The notes under the pieces: generated by a model
Database searches by the model: none
What the model saw: the letters and a program-made list of their open reading frames with translations, nothing else
Told to the model about the DNA's origin: nothing
Program-made: the position numbers and the translations under genes
NCBI GenBank assembly: GCA_036389315.1
Contig: DASVQF010000014.1
Location: 61,812 to 85,811 of the forward strand
DNA: 24,000 nt
Direction of reading: 5' to 3'
Source: Pyrinomonadaceae bacterium
Lineage (GTDB): Bacteria > Acidobacteriota > Blastocatellia > Pyrinomonadales > Pyrinomonadaceae
Shown here: in pieces, positions 1 to 17,405 of the stretch
How the letters are laid out: every line of letters begins with the position of its first letter
Numbering within the stretch: the stretch's first letter is position 1

Positions 1-1028
1 AGAAGAAGCCGGGCGAACTGGCTGTAGAGTTCCGCGACAGCGCGGAGGCACAGCCCGCCGCTCGTCTTGACGAGATGGAGCACGACAGGGAGGCTGCGGC
101 GGCCAGAACCGCTTCGCTCGCAGGAAAGGTGTCGGCGAGCTTCCGGGCACAGTCAGTGAATGATGAAAGTGATGCTGGCGGGAGACTCGGCGGCGCATGG
201 GCCCAAGCTTCGCCGGAGAGCGCGCCGGAGCCCGCTTCGACTACGCAGGGCGCTGAAGTCTCAGTGTATGAGACGGAGCTGGGCGGCCTCTTCTATCTCG
301 TCAACCTCGGCATCTTTCTCGGCCTGTACGGCGATTTCACGCGCCCGGCCGAACTCGCGCCGCCGCTTTCGATCTGGGATTTTGTAGCCCTCGTCGGCAG
401 AGAGCTGCTCGGAGAGAAGATTGAAGATGATCCGGTGTGGCCGCTGCTCGCATCGCTCGCCTGTCGCGCGGAAGGAGAGCCGCCGGGCCATGATTTCCGA
501 GCGCCCGACAGTTGGCGCATCCCGACAGACTGGCTCCTGCCTTTCGCGCAAAAATCTCTCTGGCGGTGGGAGGCCCGGCGCGAGCGTCTGCGTGTCGCCC
601 ACGCCGAAGGGTTCACCGTGATCGACGTTCCGCTCGGGAGGGATACGGCGGCGGCGCAACTGCTGCGCGAGCTGGAAGATTACAGGGGGGCGGCGGAGTT
701 TGAGCTGCGAGCCGCAGAGCTTTCCGCAGAGAGCGGGGCGCGGGCTGAGCTTGAGGCTGAAGGTGGGCCCACTCGGCTCGCGCGCTGGCTCGGCTGGCTC
801 ATGCCTTATGTGCGCGCGAGGCTCGCGCGGGCGCTCGCCCTTGAGAAGACGGAAGAGTTGGCCCACGTACTGTGCGAGCATAAGGCCCGCGTCGTCTGCA
901 CGGCGACTCACCTGGACGTTTATTTGAGCCTGGCCCAACTGCCCATCGGCGTCCGCTTGTCGGGCCTCGACCGAGACCCCGGCTGGGTTCCGGCCGCCGG
1001 AAGGTTCATCGCCTTCCATTTCGCCTGA
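1..1028 (+). CDS. Hypothetical protein, 5'-truncated at window edge (only a positional guess: eCIS structural / tape-measure-position protein)
   Basis: The frame is open from nt 3 with no in-frame stop before the first in-window ATG (75), so the gene probably starts upstream of the window. Stop is TGA 1026-1028. GGAGGAGGAG (1033-1042) and the ATG at 1052 of the next gene follow immediately (operon/coupling). The N part is Ala/acidic low-complexity, followed by a hydrophobic GGLFYLVNLGIFLGLYGDF segment and the C-terminus DPGWVPAAGRFIAFHF. No family recognised by eye. Confidence 0.6.
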   Translation, partial: KKPGELAVEFRDSAEAQPAARLDEMEHDREAAAARTASLAGKVSASFRAQSVNDESDAGGRLGGAWAQASPESAPEPASTTQGAEVSVYETELGGLFYLVNLGIFLGLYGDFTRPAELAPPLSIWDFVALVGRELLGEKIEDDPVWPLLASLACRAEGEPPGHDFRAPDSWRIPTDWLLPFAQKSLWRWEARRERLRVAHAEGFTVIDVPLGRDTAAAQLLRELEDYRGAAEFELRAAELSAESGARAELEAEGGPTRLARWLGWLMPYVRARLARALALEKTEELAHVLCEHKARVVCTATHLDVYLSLAQLPIGVRLSGLDRDPGWVPAAGRFIAFHFA

Positions 1029-1051
1029 GCCGGAGGAGGAGTACGCCCGCG

Positions 1052-3094
1052 ATGCGGAAAGACCCATTCGAGAATCTGCCGCCGAGCGCCGCAACACACT
1101 TTCAACTCTACTTCTATGCGACGATTCATCGCCTGATAGAGCAGTGCGTGCTGCAATTCGGGTCTCGTGAAGCCCTCTTTGAGCAGTTCCCTTTCCTCGC
1201 CGGTTATTACGGCGAGCTGGCGGCCAAGGGGCTGAACCGTCTGGCTTCGTCAGAGGCGACGAAGTGGTGGGCCAACGCTTTGCGGCAGTGGGAAGAGGGC
1301 GTCGCCGAGCACCTGCCTCTGAGGGCCTTGCGGACTGCCTGCGAGCTTGACCGCCAGACCTTGATGCTGCTCGTCCTCCTGGGGCTGATCGAAGAGGACG
1401 CGCGCCTGGGGTTGCTGTTTGAGACCTTGCAGGGCATAGCAGGCCAGCAGCGCCCGACGGCCGGGCTGCTGGGCGGCTGGTGGGCCAACCCTGACGACAT
1501 GACCAGCGTCCGCACGGGTATCCGGCGATTGCAGGAGTTTGGGCTCGTACAGGTCGTAAACCCGGAAGCGCCGCGCGTCCAGTGGGCCTATCAGGTTCCT
1601 TCGCCCCTGTGGGACGCTTTGCGAGGCGAAGCGCATAAAACGCTCACTCCATGGGCCACCTATCAAGCGCCCGAGACTCTGCTGAGCATGGACGAGCTGA
1701 TCGTCCCTGAGCCTTTGCGGCGGACGCTCTCGTTAATTCCGCAACTGCTCCTGAGCGGCGAGGCCGAAGCGATCATCGTTCGTGGGCCCAGCCGTAACGG
1801 CAGGCGCACGCTGCTGGGCGCGCTGGCGCGCTCGACGGGACGCGGCGCGCTCTTGATAGAGGGCCTCGGCAAGGTTGCGGACGAGCGCCTCTCGCTGGTG
1901 GGCCCACTCTCGACCACGCTCAACGCGCTGCCCCTTCTGGCGCTCGATCTTGAGCCAGGCGCTACGGCCGAGCTTCCGCGTCTGCGCGGCTATGAAGGGC
2001 CCGTCGGGGTCGTCATGGGCAGGCAGGGCGGAGTCTGTGGGCCCAACGTGGAGCGCGCCGTCACGCTCAGGCTCGACATCCCTGACGTGGAAGCGAGACG
2101 CCTCCACTGGCAATCCTGCTTCGCGGGCGTAGAGGTCGCGGAGCCGGACAGGATTTGCGAGCGGTTTCGGATGACGGGCGGCAATATTCGGCGGGCCGCG
2201 CGGTTGGCCCAGTCCTACGCCGCGCTCGACGCCCGCACGCGCGTCCTGCCGGAAGACGTGCAGCAGGCCAGCCGCGCGCTCAATCGCCAGGCGCTCGACA
2301 CGCTGGCCGCTCATCTGGAAACCTCCGGCGATTGGTCTGAGCTGGCCGTGAGCGCAGAGACCCTCACGGAGCTGCGCCATCTGGAAAGTCGTTGCTGCTA
2401 TCGCGAGCGGTTGCAGCGGGCGGTCGGCCCCGTGCTCGGCAGGCAATTGAACGCAGGCGTGCGGGCGCTCTTCAGTGGGCCGAGCGGCACGGGCAAGACC
2501 CTGGCGGCCAAGCTGCTGGCGAGCCAGCTTCAGATGGACATTTACCGCCTTGATCTTTCGACCGTCGTCAACAAGTACATCGGCGAGACGGAAAAGAGCT
2601 TGAGCCAAATCTTCTCGCGCGCCGAAGAGCTGGACGTGATCCTGCTCCTGGACGAAGGGGATGCATTGCTGACTCAGCGGACGAACGTGCAGAGCTCTAA
2701 CGACCGTTACGCCAACCTGGAGACGAACTACCTGCTGCAACGTCTCGAATCGTTCGAGGGCATTATGATCGTCACGACCAACGCGGGCGACCGCATCGAC
2801 ACGGCCTTTCAGCGGCGCATGGACGTGGTGGTCAATTTCCGCGCGCCCGAAGCGGCCGAGCGTTGGGCCATCTGGCAACTGCACCTGGCCGAGACGAGCG
2901 TCGTGGACGCGTCTCGCCTGCGCGAGATGGCCGTGCGCTGCGCGCTCACGGGCGGACAGATTCGCAATGCAGTGCTGTACGCCTCTGTCCTCGCGCTCGG
3001 CAACGGCGGCGTTGTCGAGAATAAACATTTGGAAGCAGCCATCAGACGCGAATATCGCAAGATGGGCGCAGTCTGTCCTTTGCGCTCGTCCTAG
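1052..3094 (+). CDS. AAA+ ATPase with a degenerate first and a canonical second AAA module (Afp15/Pvc15/Cis15-like eCIS ATPase candidate)
   Basis: 680 aa. Strong RBS GGAGGAGGAG lies 9 nt upstream of the ATG. The C-terminal module has Walker A GPSGTGKT (nt 2477-2500), Walker B ILLLDE (2639-2656), sensor-1 VTTN and an Arg finger in FQRRMD. The middle module has a degenerate P-loop GPSRNGRRT with no Lys-Thr/Ser. An N-terminal region of about 230 aa is non-ATPase. The AAA+ call is secure; the eCIS subtype call rests on architecture and neighbours. Confidence 0.88.
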   Translation: MRKDPFENLPPSAATHFQLYFYATIHRLIEQCVLQFGSREALFEQFPFLAGYYGELAAKGLNRLASSEATKWWANALRQWEEGVAEHLPLRALRTACELDRQTLMLLVLLGLIEEDARLGLLFETLQGIAGQQRPTAGLLGGWWANPDDMTSVRTGIRRLQEFGLVQVVNPEAPRVQWAYQVPSPLWDALRGEAHKTLTPWATYQAPETLLSMDELIVPEPLRRTLSLIPQLLLSGEAEAIIVRGPSRNGRRTLLGALARSTGRGALLIEGLGKVADERLSLVGPLSTTLNALPLLALDLEPGATAELPRLRGYEGPVGVVMGRQGGVCGPNVERAVTLRLDIPDVEARRLHWQSCFAGVEVAEPDRICERFRMTGGNIRRAARLAQSYAALDARTRVLPEDVQQASRALNRQALDTLAAHLETSGDWSELAVSAETLTELRHLESRCCYRERLQRAVGPVLGRQLNAGVRALFSGPSGTGKTLAAKLLASQLQMDIYRLDLSTVVNKYIGETEKSLSQIFSRAEELDVILLLDEGDALLTQRTNVQSSNDRYANLETNYLLQRLESFEGIMIVTTNAGDRIDTAFQRRMDVVVNFRAPEAAERWAIWQLHLAETSVVDASRLREMAVRCALTGGQIRNAVLYASVLALGNGGVVENKHLEAAIRREYRKMGAVCPLRSS

Positions 3095-3109
3095 CCGCCA
3101 GGACTTGAG

Positions 3110-6100
3110 ATGGAAACAGCACGCGTTCCAGCCAAGCAGTCCGCCAGTCCGCCCGCCGCCGCCGCCGCAACGACACGGCGCACGAGCGTCGAGCCTACGG
3201 TCGTGCCCGGCGCGCAGGCAGCCATGCGACAGGTCAGCGGCCCTTCGGTGCGGCTCGGGACGGAGACGACGCCCCCGGCTCCCGCCCTGCCGGAAGAGAC
3301 TGCCAAGACCGTCTCGGGGACGGGCCTGGGCCAGCCGCTCCCGCAAGACATCAGGCAGACGCTTGAGAAGAATTTCGGCGCTTCCTTAGAGAAGGTGCGC
3401 GTCCACACGGACACCGCCGCCACGCGCGCGGCGCAGAGCCTCTCGGCCCGCGCCTTCACCTACGGCAATCACATCTTCCTCGGCCCCGGCGAAAAGCCCA
3501 CAGACCTCGCATTGATAGCGCACGAGGCCGCTCACATTGTCCAGCAACGCGGCGCTCCGGTGGTGCAACGCTTCATGACCGATCAGAGCGATGCTTACGA
3601 GGCTGAAGCGCAGAGGGCCTCTGCGGCCGCGCTCCGTCAAGAGCCGTTCCGGGTGCGCGAGCGAACCAGCGGCTTCCGTGTGCAGAGACTCGGCAAAAGC
3701 GATGCGCTCAACTTCTTTGCCGGCGCGGCGAACGCCATTCCGGGCTTCAGGATGTTCACCATCATCATCGGCGTCAACCCGATCAACATGGCCCACGTCG
3801 AGGCCAGCCCGGGCAACATCCTGCGCGCGATCATCGAGTTCGTCCCCGGCGGGGCCCTGATTACAGAGGCGCTCGATAAGTACGGCATCTTCGATAAGGT
3901 CGGAAACTTCGTGGCCGAGCAGATTCACTCGCTCGGCGTGACGGGCGGCGTCATCCGTCAGGCGATCATGGAGTTCCTGGACGGGCTGAAGTGGTCGGAC
4001 ATCTTCGATCTGGAAGGTGTCTGGGAGCGCGCCAAGCGTATCTTCACCGAACCCATTGAGCGCATCAAGAGCTTCGTCAAGGGGCTCGCCTCCGGCATCA
4101 TCAAGTTAATCAAGGACGCTGTCCTGATGCCGCTCGCCGCGCTGGCAGCGGAGACGCGCGGCTGGGACTTGCTGACCGCCATATTGGGTAAGAACCCGAT
4201 CACGGACGAAGATGTCCCGCAAGACGCCGAAGCCTTGATCGGCGGGTTCCTGAAGCTGATCCAGCAGGACGAGATCTTTCAAAATATGAAGAAGGCGCGG
4301 GCGCTGCCGCGCGCAGTAGCCTGGTTCCAGAGCAACATGGGGACGCTGCTGGGCTTCGTGCAACAGATCCCGTCGCTCGCCATCAACGCCTTCAATGCGC
4401 TGGAACTGGAAGACCTCGTGCTGCTGCCCCGTGCCTTCAAAAAAGTGGCCGCAGTCTTTGGCAACTTCATCGGCGACTTCATCAATTGGGCCGGCAAGGC
4501 GATGTGGGACTTGCTGGAACTCATCTTCGATGTGGTCAGCCCCGGCGCGCTCAGCTACATCAAGAAGACGGGCGCGGCCCTCAAGAGCATCCTCAAGAAC
4601 CCGCTGCCCTTCGTCGGCAACCTGGTGCAGGCCGCCAAGCTCGGCTTCCAGAATTTCGCCGCAAACATCGGCCAGCATTTCAAGGCCGGGCTCCTGGACT
4701 GGCTCGTCGGCGCGTTGCCCGGTGTCTACATCCCGAAAGCAATCACGCTCCCCGAGATCGTCAAGCTGGTCTTCTCCGTGCTCGGGCTCTCTTGGGCCAA
4801 CATTCGGGCCAAGCTCGTCAAAGTGATCGGCGAGCCTGCCATGAAAGTCCTTGAGACAACCTTCGACATCGTCGTCACGCTGGTCACGCAAGGCCCTGCG
4901 GCGGCCTGGGAAAAGATCAAGGATCAACTCGCCTCGCTCAAGGATCAGATCATCGGCGGCATCACCGATCTGGTGATCGACGCTGTGAAGAAGAAGGCCG
5001 TGCCCAAGATCGTCGCCATGTTCATCCCCGGCGCTGGCTTCATCTCGGCGATACTCTCGATCTACGACACGGTCATGGTCTTCGTCCAAAAGCTGTCGAA
5101 GATCGCGCAGGTCGTCTCGGCCTTCGTCAACTCCATCGTCGCCATCGCTGGCGGCAACATCGCCGGAGCCGCCAAACGCGTGGAAAGCGTGCTCGCCGGG
5201 CTGCTCTCTCTGGCCATCAACTTCCTCGCAGGCTTCGCCGGGCTGGGCAAGATCGCCGACAAGGTGATGGGCATCATTCAGAAGGTTCGCGCCACGGTTG
5301 ACAAGGCTATAGACTGGCTCATCAACTGGATCGTGACGATGGCGAAGAAGCTCTTCGCCAAGCTTTTCGGGAGGGATAAGCCTCTCGACCCGGCAGAAGC
5401 GCAAAATTTACTGGATAAGGGAATGCTTGCCGCGCAGTCGGCTGTGAGCCGGTTTAAAGGGAAGGCTGTCGGCGAAGCTGTCTTGCGTCCCTTGCTTGCC
5501 GTCATCAAATTCCGCTACAAGTTGACAGAGCTGAATCTGGTAGTCGAAGGTAAAGAATATAGTATTGAGGCAGCCATCAATCCGAAGAAGAAGGAGAGAG
5601 TGGTCGGCGTCAAAGTCTCCGATGGCAAGTTTGAAGCAACGATTGATTTCGCCGCCAAACCGGACTTGGATCAGAAAGAGTTCAGGTATCAGATTCGCAT
5701 GGCCCAGAGCGAGATGAAGGGGATGACCTGTGAAGAGTGGCTGAAGAGACGTGAGCAGTTCTTCAAATTGAAGAAAGAGAGGGCCGAGCGCGGCTTCGCC
5801 AACCCCGAAGGCAGAGACCCGGCGGCGGCACAGCGCGCAGAGTACTTCAAGGATCGCCTCCTCAGTTTTCTGGTCATGCAAGAGAAGAAGAAAGCTCCGG
5901 ACATTCCCGACGATAAGGCCAAGGCTCAAGCACAGGCTCGTTATGATGACCTGACAAAGGGCAAGTTCCTGACGCACTATTTAGACCAGGTTGCGGGCGG
6001 CGATCCGACACGCATCAGGGGCTGGCGCGACGAGCGTGTAGACGCTTCTATCGGCGCAGCCTGGCCGTCGCGGGCCAAAGAACTGGAAGCCAAGATCAAG

Positions 6101-6175
6101 GATAAAGTGGCCCCGGAGGAACTGAAGAACACCCAGTTGATGCTTACCCTGACGGTAAATGGCTCACCCGTGTAG
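3110..6175 (+). CDS. DUF4157 (HExxH zincin-like) domain polymorphic toxin; C-terminal Ntox15/Tde-like HxxD nuclease domain candidate
   Basis: 1021 aa. AGGA lies 6 nt upstream of the ATG, which is 15 nt after the ATPase stop. The DUF4157 signature GQPLPQDIRQTLEKNFGASLEKVRVHTDTAATRAAQSLSARAFTYGNHIFLGPGEKPTDLALIAHEAAHIVQQ spans nt 3326-3547, with HEAAH at 3521-3535. A long helical/hydrophobic middle covers roughly aa 190-760. The Lys/Glu-rich helical C-terminal domain carries THYLDQVAGGD (H956, D959; nt 5975-5986). Confidence 0.85.
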   Translation: METARVPAKQSASPPAAAAATTRRTSVEPTVVPGAQAAMRQVSGPSVRLGTETTPPAPALPEETAKTVSGTGLGQPLPQDIRQTLEKNFGASLEKVRVHTDTAATRAAQSLSARAFTYGNHIFLGPGEKPTDLALIAHEAAHIVQQRGAPVVQRFMTDQSDAYEAEAQRASAAALRQEPFRVRERTSGFRVQRLGKSDALNFFAGAANAIPGFRMFTIIIGVNPINMAHVEASPGNILRAIIEFVPGGALITEALDKYGIFDKVGNFVAEQIHSLGVTGGVIRQAIMEFLDGLKWSDIFDLEGVWERAKRIFTEPIERIKSFVKGLASGIIKLIKDAVLMPLAALAAETRGWDLLTAILGKNPITDEDVPQDAEALIGGFLKLIQQDEIFQNMKKARALPRAVAWFQSNMGTLLGFVQQIPSLAINAFNALELEDLVLLPRAFKKVAAVFGNFIGDFINWAGKAMWDLLELIFDVVSPGALSYIKKTGAALKSILKNPLPFVGNLVQAAKLGFQNFAANIGQHFKAGLLDWLVGALPGVYIPKAITLPEIVKLVFSVLGLSWANIRAKLVKVIGEPAMKVLETTFDIVVTLVTQGPAAAWEKIKDQLASLKDQIIGGITDLVIDAVKKKAVPKIVAMFIPGAGFISAILSIYDTVMVFVQKLSKIAQVVSAFVNSIVAIAGGNIAGAAKRVESVLAGLLSLAINFLAGFAGLGKIADKVMGIIQKVRATVDKAIDWLINWIVTMAKKLFAKLFGRDKPLDPAEAQNLLDKGMLAAQSAVSRFKGKAVGEAVLRPLLAVIKFRYKLTELNLVVEGKEYSIEAAINPKKKERVVGVKVSDGKFEATIDFAAKPDLDQKEFRYQIRMAQSEMKGMTCEEWLKRREQFFKLKKERAERGFANPEGRDPAAAQRAEYFKDRLLSFLVMQEKKKAPDIPDDKAKAQAQARYDDLTKGKFLTHYLDQVAGGDPTRIRGWRDERVDASIGAAWPSRAKELEAKIKDKVAPEELKNTQLMLTLTVNGSPV

Positions 6176-6234
6176 GCCGTCCGCCCGACTGCAACCGGGT
6201 CATGATGAATTTGAGGAAAAGAGGTTGAGAGAGT

Positions 6235-6786
6235 ATGGCAGCATTTGAATCATTTAAGAAGAGGTACGGAGAGCCTCAAGCGTGCGTCCCTGCGCCTGCC
6301 GCCAGTATCGAGCAGTACGGCGGAAAGTTACCCGAGGCATTGCTTCAAGAGTGGCAGGCGTCGGGCTGGTGTCGCTACGGAGACGGACTCTTCTGGATCG
6401 TCAACCCGTCGGAATATGTAGAGATTCTATCAGACTGGACGGCCGACCCTGAGGAAACTTACGTGATCTCGCGCACCGCCTTTGGCGGCCTGATCGTTTG
6501 GGACGATAATCAAGCATATTTTATCGACGTAGTGACCGGCGACACCCTGCCCATGCTTGACTCTGTTGAAGAGTTGTTCGACGACATGCTGACTGACGAC
6601 TCGTTTGCCCTCAACGAATTTCGACTGAAGGACTTTGAGGCGGCGGTCGCGCGCCTGGGAATTCTGGAGCAGGATGAGTGCTACGGCTACTTTCCCCCGT
6701 TAGCCCTCGGTGGGCCGGGGACAGTCGAGACTATCCGAAAGATTAAGTTGCGCGAGCATCTGCACTTCCTATCCCAGTTGACTTGA
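6235..6786 (+). CDS. GAD-like + DUF1851 immunity protein (Tdi1-like, cognate immunity to Ntox15/Tde DNases)
   Basis: 183 aa, the typical length for this two-domain family. Hallmark stretches are YGGKLPEALLQEWQASGWCRYGDGLFWIVNPSEY, SRTAFGGLIVWD, and the C-terminal CYGYFPPLALGGPGTVETIRKIKLREHLHFLSQL. The gene starts 59 nt after the toxin stop, on the same strand, with a purine-rich RBS (gaggaaaagagg). Confidence 0.8.
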   Translation: MAAFESFKKRYGEPQACVPAPAASIEQYGGKLPEALLQEWQASGWCRYGDGLFWIVNPSEYVEILSDWTADPEETYVISRTAFGGLIVWDDNQAYFIDVVTGDTLPMLDSVEELFDDMLTDDSFALNEFRLKDFEAAVARLGILEQDECYGYFPPLALGGPGTVETIRKIKLREHLHFLSQLT

Positions 6787-6814
6787 GCCGTGCCCATGAT
6801 GTCGAGGAGAAACT

Positions 6815-9715
6815 GTGAGCACAGAGCCTCTCATTTCCTGCATCATGCCGACAGCCAACCGGCGGCAGTACGTGCCGCAGGCGATCAGCTATTTTCTGCG
6901 GCAGGATTATCCGAACAAAGAGCTGGTGATCGTGGACGACGGGCTTGAGAGCGCCGCAGACCTTGTGCCGGACGACGCGCAGGTGCGTTATGTTCGTCTC
7001 AAGGGCAAGCGCACGCTCGGGGCCAAGCGCAACGAGTGCGTCAAGCTCTGCCGGGGCAACCTCATCATGCACTGGGATGATGACGACTGGATGGCCCCGC
7101 ATCGCATCAGCTACCAGGCGGAAGCGATGCTGCGTGAAAGGGCCGAGGTGTGCGGCCTGCGGAGGATGTTGTTCTACGAGATGGGGACGGGCAAGGTCTG
7201 GCTCTACGAATATCCGGCGCACCAGAGGGCCTGGCTGGCGGGCGGCTCGCTGCTCTACACGAAAGATTTCTGGCGGCGCGCGCCCTTCCCCAACATCCAG
7301 GTCGCTTCCGACACTCGCTTCGTCTGGAACCAGCGGCTTGATCGCGCCACTGTGCTTCCCGACCACAATTTCTATGTCGCGATGATTCATCCGGGCAACA
7401 CCAGCCGGAAATCTTGCAGGGGCTCTTACTGGAAACCGTGGAAGGGTGATATAGAGAGCCTGATGGGCCCGGACATGAGCTTCTACCGCTCGCTGTCGAA
7501 GCCGAGCGCACGTAGGAGCAGCGAGCCTGTCGAATTGAAGACGAGCGACAAGGCTTTATCCGTAGAGGGAACGGGAATGTTTGAAAGAGAGATCAGCTAC
7601 AAGACGGAGCCGGGGAAAAGGCACAGTTGCCGAGTCCTTATCAAGAACCCCGTAGAGAGAATCCAGGCCAAATGGAACTCGGGTATCTTTTACGAGACGC
7701 AGCGCCACGGCATGCTGAATGTCGTCTACAGCAAATTCCAGGGAGGCGCCTTTATAGACATCGGCGCGTGCATCGGGAATCACAGCCTCTTCTTCGCTCT
7801 CTGCTGCAATGCCCGAGAGGTGCTGGCCTTCGAGCCCGTGAAAGAGATTTTCGATCACCTGGAAGAGAACCTCAGACTCAACGGCATCCTAAACGTGCGG
7901 GCCAGGAACGTTGCCCTCAGCGATAAGACGGGCGATGCCGGTATGATCTTTTCCACCATCCCTCCCGAGCGCGGCGGGATGATGATTAACAAGGTGAATG
8001 AAGTGGGCACAGGGATCAGGCTCGACACTCTGGATCGCGTGCTGGCAGAGGAGAAGGTCGAGAGCGTGACGTGCATCAAGATAGATGTCGAAGGCTATAA
8101 CCTGCCAGTCCTGCGCGGCGCGCGCCAGACCATAGAGACGCACCACCCGGCCATCTTCTGCGAGTGCGAGACCGAAGAGGCTTTTAAGGAGGTGGACGCC
8201 TTCCTCTCCGAGTTCGGTTACAGGGTATGGGCCGTCGAAGGCAAGCCGTTTGTGATGAACCACACGCCGACCTACCTCTGGGAGCACGTTGAAGAGACGG
8301 ATGTGACGGTGGTGATTACGACCTACAACAGGCCGCAATACCTCGCGCGCCTGCTGCGCAGCCTGATGGCCGATGCCGAAGGCTACACGGTCAACTGCCT
8401 CGTCTACAATGACCGCTCCGAGCTGAGCTACGACGAAATCCCCGAAGGTAACGAGCGGTTCCGTGTCAAGCTCATCAACCTCGCGGAGCATCATGGAAAG
8501 CACGGCTACTGGCGGCTCGTCAACAAAATCTTCCGCGACCTTGAGCAAGTAAAGTCGCGCTACTTCATTCAGCTTCCCGACGACGTGGAGGCCCGGCCAG
8601 GCTTTTTCTCAGAGACCATAGCGACCTATGAAGCGATCAAGAATCCGGACAAGATATGCATGAACCTCTATCTGGATGCGAGCCGCATCGGGAAGAGCAA
8701 CTGGACACGCACCTTGCCGACCATCGAGCGGCACGCCGATAAGCGTGTCTTCAGGACGGGCTGGGTGGACATGTGCTACATCGCCGAGAGACGTTTTTTC
8801 GAGGCGCTACGTTTTACGATAGATCAGGTGCCGTCAAATCGCTGGCAGGGAAATCCCAGGCTCAGCTCCGGCGTCGGGCAACAGATCACACAGCGGCTCG
8901 GCAGATACGGCATGTACCAGGTCAGGGATTGTGCGCTCGCGTCGGCCGGCGTCCCCAGCCTCATGAACCCTGACCGGCCGAAATCGGAAGACCTCTCCAT
9001 CTGCCAGCTCGACCCCCTCATCTGCGGCGTAGCCTCCATCCCCGCGCGCGCGGAAAACTTGCGCCTCGCGGTCAACTCCGTTCTTCCCGGCGTGGACGAG
9101 CTGCACGTTTATCTTAACGGCTACGCCGAGACGCCCGCCTTCCTCGATCACCCCAAAGTGCAGGTCTACAGAAGCCAGGACTTCGGAGACCTGGGCGACG
9201 CCGGAAAGTTCTTCAAGGCCGGAGAGAAGAGAGCTTTTTTCATCACCATAGACGACGACATCATCTACCCTGCGGATTTCGTCTGGAAGCTGGTCAACGA
9301 GCTTCGACAGCACCGCCAGCGAGGCTTGCGCGTGGCCGTCGGCCTGCACGGCAAGATCATGGCCCGCAAGGTCTCTCGCTTCTACAGAGATCACCTAGAG
9401 CACATTCACAGTGCTTTACCCTTGAAGCATTCGCGCGGTGTCCACGTCCTCGGCACGGGCACGGCCGCCTTTCACACAGACGACCTGAAGATCACGATTG
9501 CAGACTTCAACGGTCACGCCAACATGGCCGACATCTATTTCAGCATCGCCTGCCAGAAGCAGAACGTCGGCTGCCTGGTGCTGCCGCACCCGGCCAACTA
9601 CCTGACCATCCAGCGCATACCAGTCCACCAAACCATCTGGGGCAAGTCCCGCGCAGACGATCAACTACAGACGGACGTTTACAATGGGTGGACGGATTGG
9701 AAGATCAGAATATAA
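6815..9715 (+). CDS. Four-domain glycan-assembly fusion: GT2 - FkbM-family methyltransferase - GT2 - GT-A-like glycosyltransferase
   Basis: 966 aa. GTG start at 6815 with GAGGAGA at 6804-6810. Domain 1 (about 6830-7400): ISCIMPTANRRQYVPQAISYFLRQDYPNKELVIVDDG and WDDDDW. Domain 2 (about 7710-8225): FIDIGACIGNHSLFFA ... ALSDKTGDAGM ... KIDVEGYNLPVLRGA. Domain 3 (from about 8327): VTVVITTYNRPQYLARLLRSL ... QLPDDVE. Domain 4 (about 9020-9712): SIPARAENLRLAVNSVLPGVDELHVYLNGY ... GDAGKFF ... ITIDDDIIYPADF. Confidence 0.85.
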   Translation: MSTEPLISCIMPTANRRQYVPQAISYFLRQDYPNKELVIVDDGLESAADLVPDDAQVRYVRLKGKRTLGAKRNECVKLCRGNLIMHWDDDDWMAPHRISYQAEAMLRERAEVCGLRRMLFYEMGTGKVWLYEYPAHQRAWLAGGSLLYTKDFWRRAPFPNIQVASDTRFVWNQRLDRATVLPDHNFYVAMIHPGNTSRKSCRGSYWKPWKGDIESLMGPDMSFYRSLSKPSARRSSEPVELKTSDKALSVEGTGMFEREISYKTEPGKRHSCRVLIKNPVERIQAKWNSGIFYETQRHGMLNVVYSKFQGGAFIDIGACIGNHSLFFALCCNAREVLAFEPVKEIFDHLEENLRLNGILNVRARNVALSDKTGDAGMIFSTIPPERGGMMINKVNEVGTGIRLDTLDRVLAEEKVESVTCIKIDVEGYNLPVLRGARQTIETHHPAIFCECETEEAFKEVDAFLSEFGYRVWAVEGKPFVMNHTPTYLWEHVEETDVTVVITTYNRPQYLARLLRSLMADAEGYTVNCLVYNDRSELSYDEIPEGNERFRVKLINLAEHHGKHGYWRLVNKIFRDLEQVKSRYFIQLPDDVEARPGFFSETIATYEAIKNPDKICMNLYLDASRIGKSNWTRTLPTIERHADKRVFRTGWVDMCYIAERRFFEALRFTIDQVPSNRWQGNPRLSSGVGQQITQRLGRYGMYQVRDCALASAGVPSLMNPDRPKSEDLSICQLDPLICGVASIPARAENLRLAVNSVLPGVDELHVYLNGYAETPAFLDHPKVQVYRSQDFGDLGDAGKFFKAGEKRAFFITIDDDIIYPADFVWKLVNELRQHRQRGLRVAVGLHGKIMARKVSRFYRDHLEHIHSALPLKHSRGVHVLGTGTAAFHTDDLKITIADFNGHANMADIYFSIACQKQNVGCLVLPHPANYLTIQRIPVHQTIWGKSRADDQLQTDVYNGWTDWKIRI

Positions 9716-9742
9716 GGCGGAGGACTGAAGCTTGATAGTAAG

Positions 9743-9777
9743 ATAGCCGGGAGAGGCTTATTGCCACTTCCGGCTAT
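9743..9777. terminator. Imperfect GC hairpin between the convergent glycosyltransferase gene and tRNA-Gln (possible bidirectional terminator)
   Basis: ATAGCCGG (9743-9750) pairs with CCGGCTAT (9770-9777). The stem extends inward with two mismatches around a TTATT loop. There is no clear U-tract on either strand, so the call is weak. Confidence 0.3.
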
Positions 9778-9785
9778 TGAGAAGG

Positions 9786-9856
9786 CTCGGGGACAGGGAT
9801 TCGAACCCCAATTCTCTGATCCAGAGTCAGATGTCCTACCATTAGACGATCCCCGA
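9786..9856 (-). tRNA. tRNA-Gln (anticodon CUG)
   Basis: The minus-strand read folds as a cloverleaf: TCGGGGA TC GTCT AATGGTA GGAC A TCTGA CTCTGGA TCAGA GAAT TGGGG TTCGAAT CCCTG TCCCCGA G. The acceptor stem is 7 bp. U33 is present and the anticodon CTG is the complement of nt 9822-9824. The T-loop is TTCGAAT. U1-A72 and discriminator G fit Gln identity. CCA is not encoded. Confidence 0.9.
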
Positions 9857-9870
9857 ACGTGTATGGAAAG

Positions 9871-9900
9871 AAATTACCGTGCGGGCTGAGCGGTTGTCAA
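9871..9900 (-). promoter_or_regulatory. Sigma70-like promoter for tRNA-Gln
   Basis: On the minus strand, TTGACA (complement of 9895-9900) is followed by an 18-nt spacer and TAATTT (complement of 9871-9876). The -10 element ends 14 nt before the mature tRNA 5' end. Confidence 0.5.
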
Positions 9901-10112
9901 CCGGCTCGGCGCAGTGAAACTCCTTGCTCTCTTCCGAGAAATTACAGGCCGACGGGTCGGCGTAATTTTAGGCTTGCTCATCCGGCGCATTCGACGCACA
10001 ATGTCGGGCAAGGGTCGTCACGCGCAAGTGGCCGGGAGCGGTCTCGCCACCTCACCGGCACGCTCTTCAAAAGCCAGTCGCGCTTACTTTCGATAAAAAG
10101 GATTGTGAGTAG

Positions 10113-10454
10113 ATGGGTATGGACAAAGTGCGCGCAGAGAGCAGTGACCCGGCGCAAGGGTTGCGCGCTCTCGTCAGAGAGCTGGAATCCAAGCTGAGCG
10201 AAACGGCCGACCTGGTCGCGCACGTGCGACACGAGATCAATAATCCCCTGACAGGCGTCATCGGCCAGGCGCAGTTGCTCTTGCGCGAGGAGTTGAGTCC
10301 GGCCGCCCGCCGTAGAGTCGAGACCATCGAACAACTGGCCGGACGCATTCGCGACACCGTGGCCCAACTGCGCGACGTGCAGCGCCCGCAAGCCAAAGAG
10401 CTACCCGTTCAGACGAGCGAGGAAAAAGAGACAGACTCTCCGCCGCGCCACTAA
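10113..10454 (+). CDS. Stand-alone histidine-kinase DHp (HisKA) domain protein with no catalytic ATP-binding domain
   Basis: 113 aa. AAGGA lies 10 nt upstream of the ATG. A coiled-coil lead-in is followed by the H-box AHVRHEINNPLTGVIGQAQLLL and a second DHp helix, SPAARRRVETIEQLAGRIRDTVAQLRDV. The protein ends in a low-complexity tail. The next gene is convergent, so no HATPase_c domain can follow. Confidence 0.7.
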   Translation: MGMDKVRAESSDPAQGLRALVRELESKLSETADLVAHVRHEINNPLTGVIGQAQLLLREELSPAARRRVETIEQLAGRIRDTVAQLRDVQRPQAKELPVQTSEEKETDSPPRH

Positions 10455-10490
10455 AGCGGGCGAGGGCCGCCGCGCGTGGGCCGAAAGCCT

Positions 10491-11489
10491 TCAGAAGGCA
10501 TCTTCGGGCTTTGCGCTGCTCGAAGCGGAGCGCGCAGTGATCTGCACGGGGCGCGTGGGCGCGGGCGCTTCCCTTCTGGCGGGAGCAAACCGCGCCTTCA
10601 GTATCTCTTTCAGCATCAGCCGCCGGTTACTCAAAGTGGCCATGTGAAATGGAACGACGCAGCCGCAACGGTCGCAGTCGGCGTTGTCGCCCATCATGCA
10701 CTTGCCCTTATGCTCGCCCGTGGGCCCAAGCGTGAAGGCTTTCAAGCGAAACTCGCAATTGTCCGTCACGCGCCGCGCATTCGTTGACCTCATCAGCTCA
10801 AGCGTCGAGTCCATCATGTTGATCGTGCCCGGGTATTTTCGCTTGAGCGCGAGAATCTGATCTATCAGCGCATCGCGCGTGGGCCAGTCGAGCCAGAGCG
10901 CCTCGTCCAGGTTCGTGACAGGCGTGAAGAAGTCGAAGATGATGCCGCCGCGCGCAATCGGGCCCCACTCCTCGACCAGCTCTTCGATGCAATCCTTGGT
11001 GATCGTCGTCAGCACGCAGGAGATTTGTATCTTCAGCTCCGGGTGCCTCATCACGTTCTCCTTGATCTTCTGGTAGATGCCCGGCGCGCGCATCCGTGCG
11101 AAAGCCTCTTCCGTGCCGTCTATCGAGATGACGTAGTTGCAATCCGTCCAGGGGGGCAGCTCCATCGTGCCGTTGGTGACGATGGTGTTATGCCGGAAAT
11201 ATTTGCGGCCGACTTCGATCAGGTTGCGGCGCACAAGGGGCTCGCCTCCGACCCAGGTGCAAAGCAGCATGGGGTGGCCTGCGGCCTTCATCTCTTCGAG
11301 CTTCGCGACCCACCCTTCGACGGACAGCTCCTTCTCGCCCTTGTGGTCTTCGGCGAAGAAATAGCAGTGCTCGCAGCGCAGGTTGCAGCGGTTCGTGACA
11401 TCAATCGAGCCGACGGCGTACTTTGGCAAGCCCGTCAGAAAGAGGCGCGCGTTCTGCGCTAAGCGGCTAATTCTCCCGGAGAGATTCAT
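10491..11489 (-). CDS. Radical SAM protein (small, with C-terminal extra Cys cluster, SPASM/twitch-like)
   Basis: 332 aa. The ATG is preceded by AAGGA. The CxxxCxxC motif is in VTNRCNLRCEHCYF (C35/C39/C42; nt 11364-11387). GGEP and TNG core motifs are present. C-terminal cysteines occur in KCMMGDNADCDRCGCVVPFH. Confidence 0.85.
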   Translation of the reverse strand: MNLSGRISRLAQNARLFLTGLPKYAVGSIDVTNRCNLRCEHCYFFAEDHKGEKELSVEGWVAKLEEMKAAGHPMLLCTWVGGEPLVRRNLIEVGRKYFRHNTIVTNGTMELPPWTDCNYVISIDGTEEAFARMRAPGIYQKIKENVMRHPELKIQISCVLTTITKDCIEELVEEWGPIARGGIIFDFFTPVTNLDEALWLDWPTRDALIDQILALKRKYPGTINMMDSTLELMRSTNARRVTDNCEFRLKAFTLGPTGEHKGKCMMGDNADCDRCGCVVPFHMATLSNRRLMLKEILKARFAPARREAPAPTRPVQITARSASSSAKPEDAF

Positions 11490-11496
11490 CTCTTAT

Positions 11497-11523
11497 CCTT
11501 AAATCCCTTAAATCCCTTAAATC
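11497..11523. repeat. Three perfect tandem copies of a 9-bp unit (CCTTAAATC on +; GATTTAAGG on -) directly upstream of the 332-aa radical SAM gene
   Basis: Read directly: CCTTAAATC at 11497-11505, 11506-11514 and 11515-11523. On the minus strand the last copy supplies the AAGGA Shine-Dalgarno sequence 8 nt before the ATG at 11489. Confidence 0.9.
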
Positions 11524-11656
11524 AAAGCGACGAGCGCGGCAAGGCAGCAAGGTCAGTACAGCATAAATTAAGAGCGCCAGTCCTGAGCTACAAGTGGGCC
11601 GACGCTCTTCAACCGTTCTTCGGACTCGAATCGGACTGACACGCGGAAGAGCGGCT

Positions 11657-13627
11657 TCACACGGTCGCTTCCTCTTCTTCCGCGATCAGGTAAGGCGTCA
11701 CGGATTCGGGCCTCTCCCGGTCTTCGGCCAGAATCGCGTTGACGACAGGCAGGCTCAAGCTATGCTTTGTCGTCTTCAAGGGCACGTTCTTGCCCCTGGC
11801 GTAGACCGGATGACGACCATGCTCTTCATACCATTGGGCCAATCCGGCGGTCTTGTGCATGTTCTCGATGATCTGCCGCCAGCCCACGCCCGTGTTGTAA
11901 GCGCAGAAGGAGATTTCTCCCTCCTGCGTGCCGTACGGGATGACGCACATCTCCGTGCGGCGAAAATCGTAGTTGAAGAGGTCTTGGAACCACATGCCCT
12001 CGACACAGAGCACGCGCCAGATGTCTGCGGGGTCATCCGATGCCCCTTGTGTCTTCATCCGGTCGTTGCGGTCGGAATTAGAGTTGGTCGAAGAGGGCTT
12101 GAAGAGGTTGATGATCTGCGAGATGGGAAAGCCTTCGGGCGCTCGCTCGGCGTCGAAGTTTCGCATGATCGCCATCGCCAATTGCGCGTAAGAGAGCTTA
12201 CGACCGCGCGCCGTGTCTGTTATCACGGCCACGTCCCGCATGAACTGCTCGTAGTTGAAGAACTCGAAGAGCGAGTTGAACTCGCCCGTGCGCCGGTTGA
12301 CGACCAGCAGCGTGAAGATGCCGCAGTTCGGATGACAGTTACAGGACGACCACCCCCACGGCGCGTCCGCTCCCTGTAGCATGTCCATCACGGAAGTAAA
12401 GGCCGAGTAGGAGGAGAGCGGGAACCAATCGCGCAAAGCCTGCATGCGCCCCGAGAGTTGATCTTCGAGGTCATGGGCCATCCCGGCGAGCGTATAGCGC
12501 TGCTTGACGCGCACAGAGTCGGGCACGTCCTCGTCGCGGCCCGTGAAGGAGACGGGCTGGAAGGCTATGGTCTGAATCTTGTCAATGTTTTTGGCGGCGA
12601 ACTCGACGATCTGGCCGATGGCGTCGTTATTGATCGTGTTGACGATGGTGGTGACGAGCGTGACCTTGATGCCGACCGAGGCCAGGTTCTCAATCGCTCG
12701 CAGCTTAACGTCGAACAGGTTGCCGACGCCACGGTGCTTGTTCTTCTCTTCCGACACGCCGTCGAATTGCAGGTAGACGCCGTGCTGCCCGGCCTCCTTG
12801 GCGGCCTTGCAGAACTCTATGTCCTCGGCGAAGCGTATGCCGTTGGTGGCCGCAAGGATGCGGTAGAAGCCGATCTTCTTGGCGTAGGCGACCGCTTCCA
12901 GATAGTAGGGCGAAAGCGTTGGCTCGCCGCCTGAGAAGAGGATGATGATCTGGCGGCGCGGCTTGAACGAGACGGCGCGATCAAGAATAGCCTTCGTGTC
13001 CTCAAACGTGGGCTCGTGCACGTAGCCGACCTGGTTGGCGTCCATGAAGCACGGATTGCACATCATGTTGCAGCGATTGGTCAGGTCAACCGTCAGCACT
13101 GCGCCGCGTCCGAACTGTATATTGCTCGTCCCGTGCCGGTGCACCGCCGAGTCTTCGGCCGTGCGAAAGTCGCGTCCGAAGAAGAGCGACTCGATGCGTT
13201 CAAGAAAGCGTGGGTCGGTGGCCATCACGTCCGTGAACTCGCCGTGCTTGGGACAGGTCTTGCGCATGATGACGCGGCCGTCTTCTTCGAGAATCTGCGC
13301 CTTGATCTCGCCCGGATGCTGGTGCATCAGGGTCTCAAGCGGGGTCTGCCCCGTTATCACCGCGTCGCGCACCTCTTTGACGCAGCGCGGGCACAAAGAG
13401 TCCGTCTCGCGCGGGAAGCCCAGGGGCGGAGCCGTGCGCTCGTAGGATTTCAGGAGCGGGCCCGGAGCCCACTGCGGCCGTATGGCCTCGCCTTCCGGCA
13501 GACGCTTGTTGACGGACTGAAAAGCCTTCCACGCCACGTCCGACAGGTTCGAGAGCAGTTTGGAGCTTTTCACCCCACTGAACTTACCCTTTTCAGATTC
13601 GCCTCTGCGGAATTGGTCGCTAAACAA
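11657..13627 (-). CDS. Large radical SAM protein, COG1964 / tetraether-lipid-synthase (Tes, GDGT-MAS)-like candidate
   Basis: 656 aa. TTG start at 13627 with AAGGAG 9 nt upstream. An N-terminal metal knuckle is formed by CPRC (C79/C82) and CPKH (C125/H128). The radical SAM motif is in TNRCNMMCNPCF (C186/C190/C193; nt 13049-13072). SGGEPT and TNG motifs are present. Further Cys clusters are CNCHPNC and MCVIPYGTQEGEISFCAYNTG. Radical SAM is secure; the Tes-like subfamily is recognition by eye only. Confidence 0.85.
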   Translation of the reverse strand: MFSDQFRRGESEKGKFSGVKSSKLLSNLSDVAWKAFQSVNKRLPEGEAIRPQWAPGPLLKSYERTAPPLGFPRETDSLCPRCVKEVRDAVITGQTPLETLMHQHPGEIKAQILEEDGRVIMRKTCPKHGEFTDVMATDPRFLERIESLFFGRDFRTAEDSAVHRHGTSNIQFGRGAVLTVDLTNRCNMMCNPCFMDANQVGYVHEPTFEDTKAILDRAVSFKPRRQIIILFSGGEPTLSPYYLEAVAYAKKIGFYRILAATNGIRFAEDIEFCKAAKEAGQHGVYLQFDGVSEEKNKHRGVGNLFDVKLRAIENLASVGIKVTLVTTIVNTINNDAIGQIVEFAAKNIDKIQTIAFQPVSFTGRDEDVPDSVRVKQRYTLAGMAHDLEDQLSGRMQALRDWFPLSSYSAFTSVMDMLQGADAPWGWSSCNCHPNCGIFTLLVVNRRTGEFNSLFEFFNYEQFMRDVAVITDTARGRKLSYAQLAMAIMRNFDAERAPEGFPISQIINLFKPSSTNSNSDRNDRMKTQGASDDPADIWRVLCVEGMWFQDLFNYDFRRTEMCVIPYGTQEGEISFCAYNTGVGWRQIIENMHKTAGLAQWYEEHGRHPVYARGKNVPLKTTKHSLSLPVVNAILAEDRERPESVTPYLIAEEEEATV

Positions 13628-14030: not shown

Positions 14031-14858
14031 ATGGATATTCACCCAACAGCCATTATCAGTCCGCGCGCCGCTATCGCAAGACACGTCCGTATCAGCCCTT
14101 ATGCAGTGATCGAAGATGAAGTGATTATCGGGGCTGGTTGCGAGATCGGCGCGCACGCCGTCATCAAACGCTTTACGAGCCTGGGCCAGCGCAACCGTAT
14201 TTACGAGCACACGACATTGGGCGGCGAGCCGCAGGACGTTAAATTCAAGGGCGAGAGAAGCTGCCTTTCCATCGGCGACGACAATCTGATACGAGAGGGC
14301 GTGACCATACATCGCGCGAGCGGCGAGGGAGAAGTGACGCAGGTAGGCTCGCGCAACTTCCTGATGATCGGCACACACATAGCGCATAATTGCGTGATCG
14401 GCGACGACAATATCTTTGCCAACGAAGTGGCCCTGGCCGGGCACATCCGGGTTGAAGATCACGTCTTTCTCTCGAACAACGTCGGCGCGCACCAGTTCGT
14501 GCGCTTCGGACGCTATGCGATGGTCGGCGGCAAGTCCAAGATCGTGCAGGACGTGCTGCCCTTCTTCACGACCGACGGGAATCCGCCGCGCGTGCGCGGC
14601 CTTAACCTGATCGGCCTGCGTCGCGGCGGCTTCGACGCACGGGCGCGCCAGCTCTTAAAGGAAGCGTACCGGATTCTATTTCGCCGTGGGCTCGGTTTGG
14701 GAGAGGCGCTCGCCGAGATGGCTTTGCTCAAGGACGAGAACGTCAATCACCTGATCGGCTTTATTCGCGAGTCGCGGCGCGGCTTTACGCGCGAGCGCAG
14801 GAAAGCTGGAGGAGCCGGGGAAGAAGAGGCGCTCGCCGCTTTGAAGGCGGACGTTTAA
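14031..14858 (+). CDS. lpxA: Acyl-ACP--UDP-N-acetylglucosamine O-acyltransferase
   Basis: 275 aa. Left-handed beta-helix hexapeptide repeats are collinear with E. coli LpxA: IHPTAII, IGAGCEIGAHAVI, IYEHTTLGGEPQDVKFKGE, IGDDNLIREGVTIHRA, VGSRNFLMIGTHIAHNCVIGD, LAGH, VHQFVRFGRYAMVGG, QDVLPF, and GLNLIGLRRGGF in the C-terminal helical domain. Confidence 0.93.
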   Translation: MDIHPTAIISPRAAIARHVRISPYAVIEDEVIIGAGCEIGAHAVIKRFTSLGQRNRIYEHTTLGGEPQDVKFKGERSCLSIGDDNLIREGVTIHRASGEGEVTQVGSRNFLMIGTHIAHNCVIGDDNIFANEVALAGHIRVEDHVFLSNNVGAHQFVRFGRYAMVGGKSKIVQDVLPFFTTDGNPPRVRGLNLIGLRRGGFDARARQLLKEAYRILFRRGLGLGEALAEMALLKDENVNHLIGFIRESRRGFTRERRKAGGAGEEEALAALKADV

Positions 14859-14870
14859 GAGGTTCGAGTT

Positions 14871-15932: not shown

Positions 15933-15973
15933 CTGAATCGCTCATTGAATCATAATCTTCAATAGCTCTTCCT

Positions 15974-17218: not shown

Positions 17219-17320
17219 GTTCGCGGAGTGTCGCTCTAGCTCTTCTACCTTCCCGCTTCTGCTTTAAGCCTCTTCCGTGTTAGCATCGGCTCGCCTTTGA
17301 CGACAACAGGGCGCATTCCA

Positions 17321-17383
17321 CTCGGCTCCGCTCGCGGCGCGAGCCGAGTTCAGAAGAAGCGCCCGCATCTTCTGAACTCGGCC
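17321..17383. promoter_or_regulatory. Two mutually exclusive GC-rich hairpins in the lpxB-lptD divergent intergenic region
   Basis: Hairpin A: CTCGGCTC (17321-17328) pairs with GAGCCGAG (17341-17348). Hairpin B: a perfect 15-bp stem, GCCGAGTTCAGAAGA (17343-17357) pairing with TCTTCTGAACTCGGC (17368-17382), with a 10-nt loop. The right arm of A is part of the left arm of B. GGAGG (17387-17391) and the lptD TTG (17406) follow. Confidence 0.6.
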
Positions 17384-17405
17384 TCTGGAGGTCTTCGTCT
17401 AATCT

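Follow-up and report, generated by a model that had tools for sequence, protein, structure and literature searches.

The 5' end of a Pyrinomonadaceae contig segment as the predicted cargo-handling end of an Afp/PVC-like contractile injection operon

Which system do the first genes of a 24,000-nt stretch of DNA from a Pyrinomonadaceae bacterium (hereafter the window) belong to, where a reading frame cut by the 5' edge is followed on the plus strand by genes for an AAA+ ATPase, a DUF4157 protein and a small immunity-type protein? We propose, with a probability of about 0.88, that nt 1 to 6786 represent the distal, cargo-handling end of a ~34-kb operon for an extracellular contractile injection system (eCIS) of the Afp/PVC-like kind. 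The proposal is based on gene content, gene order, homology, motifs and conservation, the system being known here from its genes alone.

The window matched the JGI contig Ga0334932_000031 (139,879 bp; a Pyrinomonadaceae metagenome-assembled genome, MAG) from position 61,622 on, with 0 mismatches over 13,094 nt, and the twin assembly at NCBI is labelled Pyrinomonadaceae bacterium (Acidobacteriota, class Blastocatellia). The DNA upstream of the window was reached in two steps, in which the farthest upstream protein was located in the protein database and its contig was then looked up; L116 and L117 below denote stretches of this contig (L116:15208-19235, for example, equals contig 56,599-60,626). 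The ATPase protein was present on two public assemblies, and the genes were called alike on both of these independent assemblies. Because each has many homologs and the same calls were made on the two assemblies, the frames of the window are predicted to be genuine genes rather than chance open reading frames (ORFs) in high-GC DNA.

The first frame of the window (frame 3, plus strand) is open at the 5' edge, as an earlier note made on this DNA had recorded, and ends with a TGA at 1026-1028. It encodes residues 321-661 plus the stop (1-1028, as read from the translation) of a 661-aa conserved protein, the full gene of which lies at L116:19273-21258. The earlier note had called this frame coupled to the ATPase gene. 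The two genes are indeed adjacent, but their codons do not overlap; instead, a 23-nt gap carries a strong Shine-Dalgarno-like sequence, GGAGGAGGAG (1031-1040, plus strand), read from the sequence 11 nt 5' of the ATPase ATG at 1052.

The ATPase gene occupies 1052-3094 (plus strand) and encodes 680 aa (Pfam AAA at aa 473-597, E 1.4e-25), with all motifs cited for it previously being found in their places. Sequence evidence divides the protein into an N region (aa 1 to ~225), D1 (~226-400) and D2 (~401-680). The Walker A element of D1, GPSRNGRRT (aa 245-253; 1784-1810), had been described as degenerate. The catalytic Lys is missing from it, being replaced by Arg, but random decay does not describe the element, as the variant is conserved as G-x3-N-G-R-R-[TS] over 75 family members. 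The catalytic core of D2 (2477-2821) contains the Walker A motif GPSGTGKT (aa 476-483; 2477-2500), the pore loop NKYIGETE (aa 507-514), the Walker B motif ILLLDEGD (aa 530-537), sensor-1 VTTN (aa 574-577, with TTN at 575-577) and the Arg fingers FQRR (aa 586-589). Walker A, Walker B (four hydrophobic residues followed by DEGD), the sensor-1 Asn and the two Arg fingers are conserved across the family, and the pore loop is identical in 76 of 76 sequences, Afp15 among them.

In BLASTP comparisons, the D2 half was 40% identical to Afp15 of Serratia entomophila pADAP (aa 402-672, 189 bits), and scores of 197-215 bits were obtained against the DUF4255-adjacent ATPase of a Streptomyces clavuligerus megaplasmid and of 218 bits against a VgrG-adjacent Deinococcus plasmid ATPase, the latter over both D1 and D2 (aa 236-672). 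Other AAA+ proteins scored much lower, at 63 bits for Escherichia coli FtsH and ~50 bits per domain for solved structures of VCP-like/CDC48 proteins. The anticipated affinity to the eCIS clade rather than to unrelated AAA+ proteins is thus seen in a bit-score comparison (189-218 versus 63), made with one outgroup and in place of a tree. A profile built from 75 family members could be aligned with the whole of Afp15 (639 columns, E 1.3e-55). With D2 removed, the N and D1 portion was still collinear with Afp15 (112-273 versus 113-277; score 45, E 2e-5), compared with scores of at most 20.6 for 20 shuffled controls, and a search of this half against the PDB gave no match. Pvc15 is reported to consist of an N domain, a D1 that has lost its catalytic residues and has Arg for the Walker A Lys, and a D2 that is the sole active ATPase and whose activity is required for payload loading (PMC11495950), and in AlgoCIS, cargo does not enter the tube lumen unless the homolog Alg15 is present (preprint 10.64898/2026.05.27.728243). 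By its motifs and similarities, the 680-aa protein is predicted to be a Cis15/Afp15/Pvc15-type ATPase with an N region, a non-catalytic D1 and a canonical D2.

If this assignment holds, the genes for a contractile particle should be found nearby, and the earlier note had predicted sheath, tube and baseplate genes just upstream. These genes were found, on the same strand and within ~27 kb of the window start. Among the families that the note had listed for this region, sheath, gp19, gp25, baseplate J, LysM and DUF4255 were all recovered, and PAAR was not. The operon of ~34 kb begins with a BTAD regulator gene (contig 34,382-35,332), a 97-aa ORF, the Pvc16_N/DUF4255 cap gene at the operon head (202 aa, L117:5834-6442) and a gene for a 305-aa protein. 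There follow genes for a 662-aa sheath, a 150-aa gp19 tube, a 1090-aa second sheath, a 175-aa gp19 tube and a CIS_tube plus LysM protein, and next a 61-aa ORF and genes for gpD, the base_V spike, a 688-aa protein, gp25, a baseplate J/TIGR02243 protein and a 1002-aa Tail_P2_I/CIS12-like protein. The last part comprises genes for a putative 708-aa fibre, a 663-aa protein with glycosyltransferase family 4 (GT4) and TPR domains and a putative 422-aa fibre, a 250-aa ORF, and the genes of the 661-aa protein and the ATPase.

The assignments rest on matches of different strength. The 662-aa sheath has Phage_sheath_1 and 1C domains, the second sheath (L117:10001-13273) matched a PHROG tail sheath at 4.5e-29, and both smaller proteins are gp19 tubes, the 175-aa one at 3.4e-32. 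The baseplate and spike proteins matched Baseplate_J (3.9e-10), Phage_GPD (6.7e-8), base_V (7.8e-27) and CIS_tube, the last together with LysM (8.4e-25); TIGR02243 was matched by the baseplate J protein at 9e-70, and GPW_gp25 was found on a called gene. The 1002-aa protein has a weak precomputed match to Tail_P2_I and a partial one to CIS12_fam. The putative 708-aa and 422-aa fibres matched the N-terminal part of CIS13_fam (8.9e-11 and 5.1e-8, respectively), well under the curated cutoff, and the former carries collagen Gly-X-Y repeats. This gene order is repeated in a 77%-identical relative and in 10 long relatives from a metagenome scan, the scan relatives being ~56% identical or less. On these matches the upstream region is a full set of contractile-injection structural genes on the strand of the ATPase gene, and the markers found at the locus (sheath, tube, baseplate, spike, LysM-tube, cap, ATPase and DUF4157) assign it, as far as sequence can tell, to the Afp/PVC type.

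Several features of the upstream operon deserve mention in their own right. In the 1090-aa sheath paralogue, the conserved C-terminal sheath domain is preceded by an insertion of two internal segments, each of ~110 aa, that resemble one another. The BTAD/SARP-like gene (L117:4382-5332), which lies ~0.5 kb ahead of the cap gene, is likely the operon regulator, because BTAD is known as an eCIS 'shell' domain. Between the fibre genes and beyond (L116:15208-19235), the 663-aa GT4 plus TPR gene and the 250-aa ORF occur only in this contig and in the 77%-identical relative; since the 708-aa fibre encoded ahead of them has collagen repeats, it may be glycosylated. The 688-aa protein (L117:16580-18646), encoded between the spike and gp25 genes, is kept in 9 of the 10 long relatives and matched no family, and its C-terminus includes 46 extremely hydrophobic residues (aa 634-679; mean Kyte-Doolittle 3.19). 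A role as a membrane anchor, or as a tip component that inserts into a membrane, is conceivable for this protein.

We then asked what accompanies this ATPase elsewhere, using 80 genome loci with a 40-63% identical ATPase, for which ~10 kb each was fetched. Among the groups represented are Acidobacteriota, Chloroflexota, Myxococcota, Gemmatimonadota and Proteobacteria. A homolog of the 661-aa protein lies directly 5' of the ATPase gene in 74 of the 80 (median offset −1.9 kb), and as four of the remaining six simply end before the upstream DNA, the proportion is 74 of 76 informative loci. A DUF4157 domain is encoded downstream in 50 of the 80, and Cis12 or fibre genes occur within 10 kb in ~50 of the 80. 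In the two true exceptions, the Terriglobia MAGs L041 and L042, a 59%-identical ATPase is encoded at a distance from contractile-tail genes, and an ABC transporter and a sigma-54 activator precede it. L041 (L041:9926-20532) is the exception locus with enough downstream DNA to be checked for DUF4157 cargo, and there the ATPase gene is directly followed by genes for a DUF4157-APOBEC-like deaminase (966 aa) and a 1622-aa DUF4157 protein, an arrangement that looks like an 'orphan' loader-plus-cargo module as judged from the genes. Because this detached ATPase keeps its DUF4157 neighbours, the link between ATPase and DUF4157 cargo appears to hold more widely than that between ATPase and structural genes, which fits the ATPase and the cargo acting as one loading module.

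These data also bear on a different explanation, in which a prophage tail module or an R-type tailocin makes up the region and the ATPase is a housekeeping AAA+ protein of the CDC48/FtsH kind, unrelated to it and adjacent by chance. NCBI and JGI do label several of the locus proteins only 'phage tail protein', and in both the PDB and NCBIfam the ATPase is matched best by generic AAA+ proteins. However, no capsid, portal, terminase or type VI secretion system (T6SS) membrane-complex genes were among the genes called at contig 30,001-74,715, and the flanks of the locus are cellular, with a PfkB kinase, a methyltransferase and a MacB/FtsX transporter upstream and glycosyltransferase and radical-SAM genes downstream. 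Moreover, Pvc16_N/DUF4255, DUF4157 and the AAA+ ATPase are eCIS markers absent from phage tails and tailocins (PMC8213781, PMC12210884), the ATPase scores threefold higher against eCIS ATPases than against FtsH, and its family is set in eCIS loci in the 74 of 76 cases above. This explanation is contradicted by the data, and we give it hardly any weight.

Next to the ATPase gene, the DUF4157 frame starts at 3110, 15 nt past the ATPase stop as first noticed, and matched PF13699 at E 1.7e-24; this family, formerly DUF4157, is now named 'eCIS core domain' in Pfam. The frame (3110-6175, plus strand) encodes a predicted cargo toxin of 1021 aa that also matched Ntox15 (2.9e-13). It is composed of an Ala/Thr/Pro-rich N-terminus (aa 1-75), DUF4157/eCIS_core (aa 76-149, with HEAAH at 138), a conserved middle (aa ~150-850) and an Ntox15 DNase tip (aa 854-1014, with HYLD, an HxxD motif, at 956). 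The N-terminus has 13% order-promoting residues compared with 35% for the whole protein, which is a statement on composition only. The toxin gene is followed by one for a 183-aa protein of the Tdi1 type (6235-6786, plus strand; Pfam GAD-like 2.7e-24, T6SS_Tdi1_C 4.6e-20). Together, 3110-6786 are predicted to encode an Ntox15 DNase and its Tdi1-type immunity protein, and the description of nt 1-6786 as a cargo end holds in that nt 3110-6786 consist of this DUF4157-Ntox15 toxin and the Tdi1-like protein.

Toxins of eCISs have been described that start with DUF4157 and have long linkers, and pairs of toxin and immunity genes beside eCIS loci have been read as evidence of antibacterial use (PMC8213781). 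Pairs of an Ntox15/Tde DNase and a GAD-like/DUF1851 Tdi protein have been shown experimentally to be antibacterial T6SS effectors (PMC4096383, PMC10470768), and one Ntox15 effector kills fungi (PMC9973263). As for the N-terminal parts, loading of AlgoCIS cargo is signalled by its disordered N-terminus and does not need DUF4157 (preprint 10.64898/2026.05.27.728243).

The conservation of the cargo among the relatives differs strongly along its length. Similarity to the genes downstream of the related ATPases spans aa ~60-830 and collapses past ~830-850; DUF4157 is shared with ~46 loci and residues ~450-750 with ~34 loci at ~40% identity, and no more than 1-3 loci share the Ntox15 tip. In nine sampled relatives, eCIS_core stood at the start of all nine proteins, with Ntox4 as the tip of one and nothing recognisable by Pfam at the tip of the other eight. 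This pattern is that of a polymorphic toxin, and we predict from it a cargo design with an exchangeable tip and a matching immunity gene. The GC contents of the toxin tip (0.568) and the immunity gene (0.554) are lower than that of the ATPase gene (0.647); GC content as a sign of cassette exchange was dropped, the signal being weak since the rest of the window lies at 0.59-0.62. The 'linker' of the cargo (residues ~150-850; window 3560-5659) is conserved, has no Pfam domain and contains hydrophobic helical segments at 631-652 and 694-712. Instead of being a passive spacer, this conserved middle region may act as a module for translocation or packing.

Some observations weigh against the assignment of nt 1-6786 to the end of an Afp/PVC-like operon, or against parts of it. 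The production, release and loading of particles are predicted only from the genes. No protein of the locus matched the tape measure family CIS_TMP (PF19268), PAAR or DUF5908 (Afp6), and for PF19268 this held even at E<=10, where Afp14 itself matched at 1.9e-49; the conserved 305-, 688- and 661-aa proteins, which have no assignment, are the candidates for the tape-measure role. A single-sequence AlphaFold model of the ATPase was discarded at a mean predicted local distance difference test (pLDDT) of 37, and its architecture was read from motifs and alignments alone. The immunity gene by itself is no proof of a bacterial target, given the antifungal Ntox15 effector, and the hydrophobic C-terminus of the 688-aa protein could mean that the particle is attached to a membrane and not free.

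The last point leads to a variant in which the system is not released at all but is cell-bound or cytoplasmic, like the Streptomyces or the thylakoid-anchored Anabaena systems. Such a system would account for the 46-residue strongly hydrophobic C-terminus of the 688-aa protein; in addition, no lysis cassette was seen beside the locus, and related ATPases also occur in Streptomyces loci. The two putative fibre genes with CIS13-like N-termini and the collagen-like shaft, on the other hand, fit the recognition of an external target, and a DNase with a dedicated immunity protein fits delivery into other cells. On balance, we regard an unreleased system as distinctly improbable.

What, then, is the 661-aa protein that so regularly precedes the ATPase? 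Of its sequence, the window covers the entire C-terminal domain and the greater part of the disordered linker. Searches of Pfam, NCBIfam, PHROGs, PDB sequences (with the single sequence and a profile) and plasmids (by tblastn) returned no match, and 120 listed database relatives were all 'hypothetical protein', none with a Pfam domain. The family is nonetheless large: at E<=1e-3 it comprises 4,868 representative clusters, and at E<=1e-30 the number is 2,094, and its members are almost all full-length (600-750 aa). It was not found in the eCIS loci of Serratia, Streptomyces or Deinococcus, and a literature search found no paper describing it. An AlphaFold (AF2) model built from 62 homologs reached a pLDDT of 80.7 and a predicted template modelling score (pTM) of 0.81. 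In it, residues 7-310 form a mostly helical domain and residues 404-661 an alpha/beta domain, with a disordered linker at 312-403 between the two. Foldseek searches with this model against the PDB, which holds several solved eCIS particles, and BFVD gave best E values above 1. Across the family the linker has a length of 48 to 157 residues and a conservation of 11%, compared with 41% and 52% for the flanking domains.

A position directly 5' of the ATPase gene is that of afp14/pvc14, and the 661-aa protein might accordingly be the tape measure (Cis14) of this lineage, either diverged or non-homologous, with its variable disordered centre setting tail length within the tube lumen. This idea draws on the gene slot, on the variable centre between conserved ends and on CIS_TMP being matched by no other protein of the locus; moreover, Afp14 has no PDB entry, so that a missing fold match is no disproof of it. 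Direct membership in the CIS_TMP/Afp14 family was tried and rejected, as none of 50 members of the 661-aa family matched PF19268 (Afp14, 1.9e-49) and BLASTP against Afp14 returned nothing; hhalign likewise gave a probability of 0.2-0.7% for the family against Afp14 and noise-level values against all 18 Afp proteins. The model further shows two well-packed globular domains joined by a linker of only ~90 residues, with no long helical ruler, and AlgoCIS Alg14 has been described as having a central alpha-helical region. We therefore consider the tape-measure role doubtful.

We read the 661-aa protein as a lineage-specific partner of the ATPase, and our tentative best guess, held at short of even odds, is an assembly or loading factor that works with it. 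More broadly, a large eCIS lineage found mostly in soil (Acidobacteriota, Chloroflexota, Myxococcota and others) could have in this family a core component that has so far escaped description. It would work with Cis15 either as an adaptor docking cargo or the ATPase to the particle as it grows or as a non-homologous substitute for the tape measure, and the lineage would use polymorphic DUF4157 toxins and immunity genes in inter-bacterial warfare. This composite proposal, taken as a whole, is speculative and somewhat more apt to fail than to hold.

The following mechanism may be envisaged for the system. The upstream structural genes would build a particle of sheath, tube, baseplate and spike with collagen-like fibres. 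Cis15 would form a hexamer, in which the D2 ring hydrolyses ATP, the KYIG pore loop grips the cargo and D1 serves as a non-catalytic scaffold ring. The ATPase would recognise the disordered Ala/Thr/Pro-rich N-terminus of the cargo, unfold the protein and feed it into the lumen of the tube while the particle is being assembled in the cytoplasm. The 661-aa protein would be the lineage-specific partner, perhaps an assembly or loading factor acting with the ATPase or, as the main alternative, a non-canonical tape measure. That the ATPase loads the cargo and that the N-terminus serves as the signal is carried over by analogy from the PVC and AlgoCIS studies. Inside the producer cell the Tdi1-like protein would neutralise the DNase, and upon fibre binding and sheath contraction the DNase would be delivered into a target cell, probably another bacterium because an immunity gene is present. 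What sort of cell is targeted and what the 661-aa protein does are points that we purely infer.

Downstream of the immunity gene, after 28 nt, a gene on the plus strand (6815-9715) encodes a 966-aa protein with a glycosyltransferase family 2 (GT2) domain, an FkbM methyltransferase domain and a second GT2 domain, and no terminator-like site was seen between the two genes. Scans for promoters and terminators over window 1-10,500 yielded sites no more frequent than in shuffled sequence, and the operon's 3' end is therefore left undefined. Two radical-SAM genes, one with an HMPTM-type zinc ribbon, lie on the minus strand (10491-13627), and an LpxA-LpxD/LpxB/LptD cluster for lipid A and lipopolysaccharide transport follows at 14031-19946. 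The remainder of the window (glycosyltransferase, radical-SAM, LpxA/D/B and LptD genes) fits ordinary chromosomal genes of a diderm acidobacterium.

An eCIS locus as such is expected here, as many soil bacteria carry these systems, and earlier work has described the ATPase as well as DUF4157 cargo and toxin-immunity pairs; the present locus is a clean and complete example from the Acidobacteriota. Its DNase/immunity pair of the T6SS type, encoded as cargo, adds evidence that some eCISs target bacteria. The less ordinary part is the near-obligate upstream partner of the ATPase, a family of thousands that has no annotation and a confidently predicted fold without structural match. How cargo is loaded and tail length set in eCISs outside the Afp/PVC lineage matters to those who engineer the particles as delivery tools, and the 661-aa protein is a concrete candidate for such work.

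Compared with Afp15, Pvc15 and Alg15, the ATPase of the window is alike in length (680 versus 696-698 aa), in the N-D1-D2 layout, in the Lys to Arg replacement in D1, in the GTGK, DE Walker B, sensor-1 Asn, two Arg fingers and NKYIGETE of D2, and in its place at the distal operon end beside the cargo, with 40% identity to Afp15 over D2. It differs in that N and D1 are weakly similar to those of Afp15 (E 2e-5) and in its Walker B, which reads DEGD rather than DEAD. The operons differ as well, since the cap gene (DUF4255) stands at the operon start here instead of after the ATPase gene, and the upstream neighbour of the ATPase is the 661-aa family instead of a CIS_TMP tape measure. The 661-aa protein shares with Afp14, Pvc14 and Alg14 (PF19268, CIS_TMP) the slot 5' of the ATPase gene and conserved ends around a variable middle; it has no sequence or profile similarity to them, and its predicted fold consists of two globular domains rather than an extended helical ruler.

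The cargo resembles Cgo1 and Cgo2 of AlgoCIS and the DUF4157 toxins of Geller et al. (2021) in having a disordered N-terminus, DUF4157 with HExxH, a long spacer and a variable effector, and in being encoded right after the structural operon. It differs from them in its ~700-aa middle region conserved across ~34 related loci and in its Ntox15/Tde-type DNase tip with an adjacent Tdi1-type immunity gene, a combination best known from T6SS. With Tde1-Tdi1 of Agrobacterium tumefaciens and Bacteroidales, finally, it has in common Ntox15 with HxxD and a GAD-like plus Tdi1_C (DUF1851) immunity protein encoded immediately downstream; the window toxin, however, is the C-terminal tip of a 1021-aa DUF4157 protein and would be delivered by a machine of the eCIS type, and Tde1 is a T6SS spike-associated effector.

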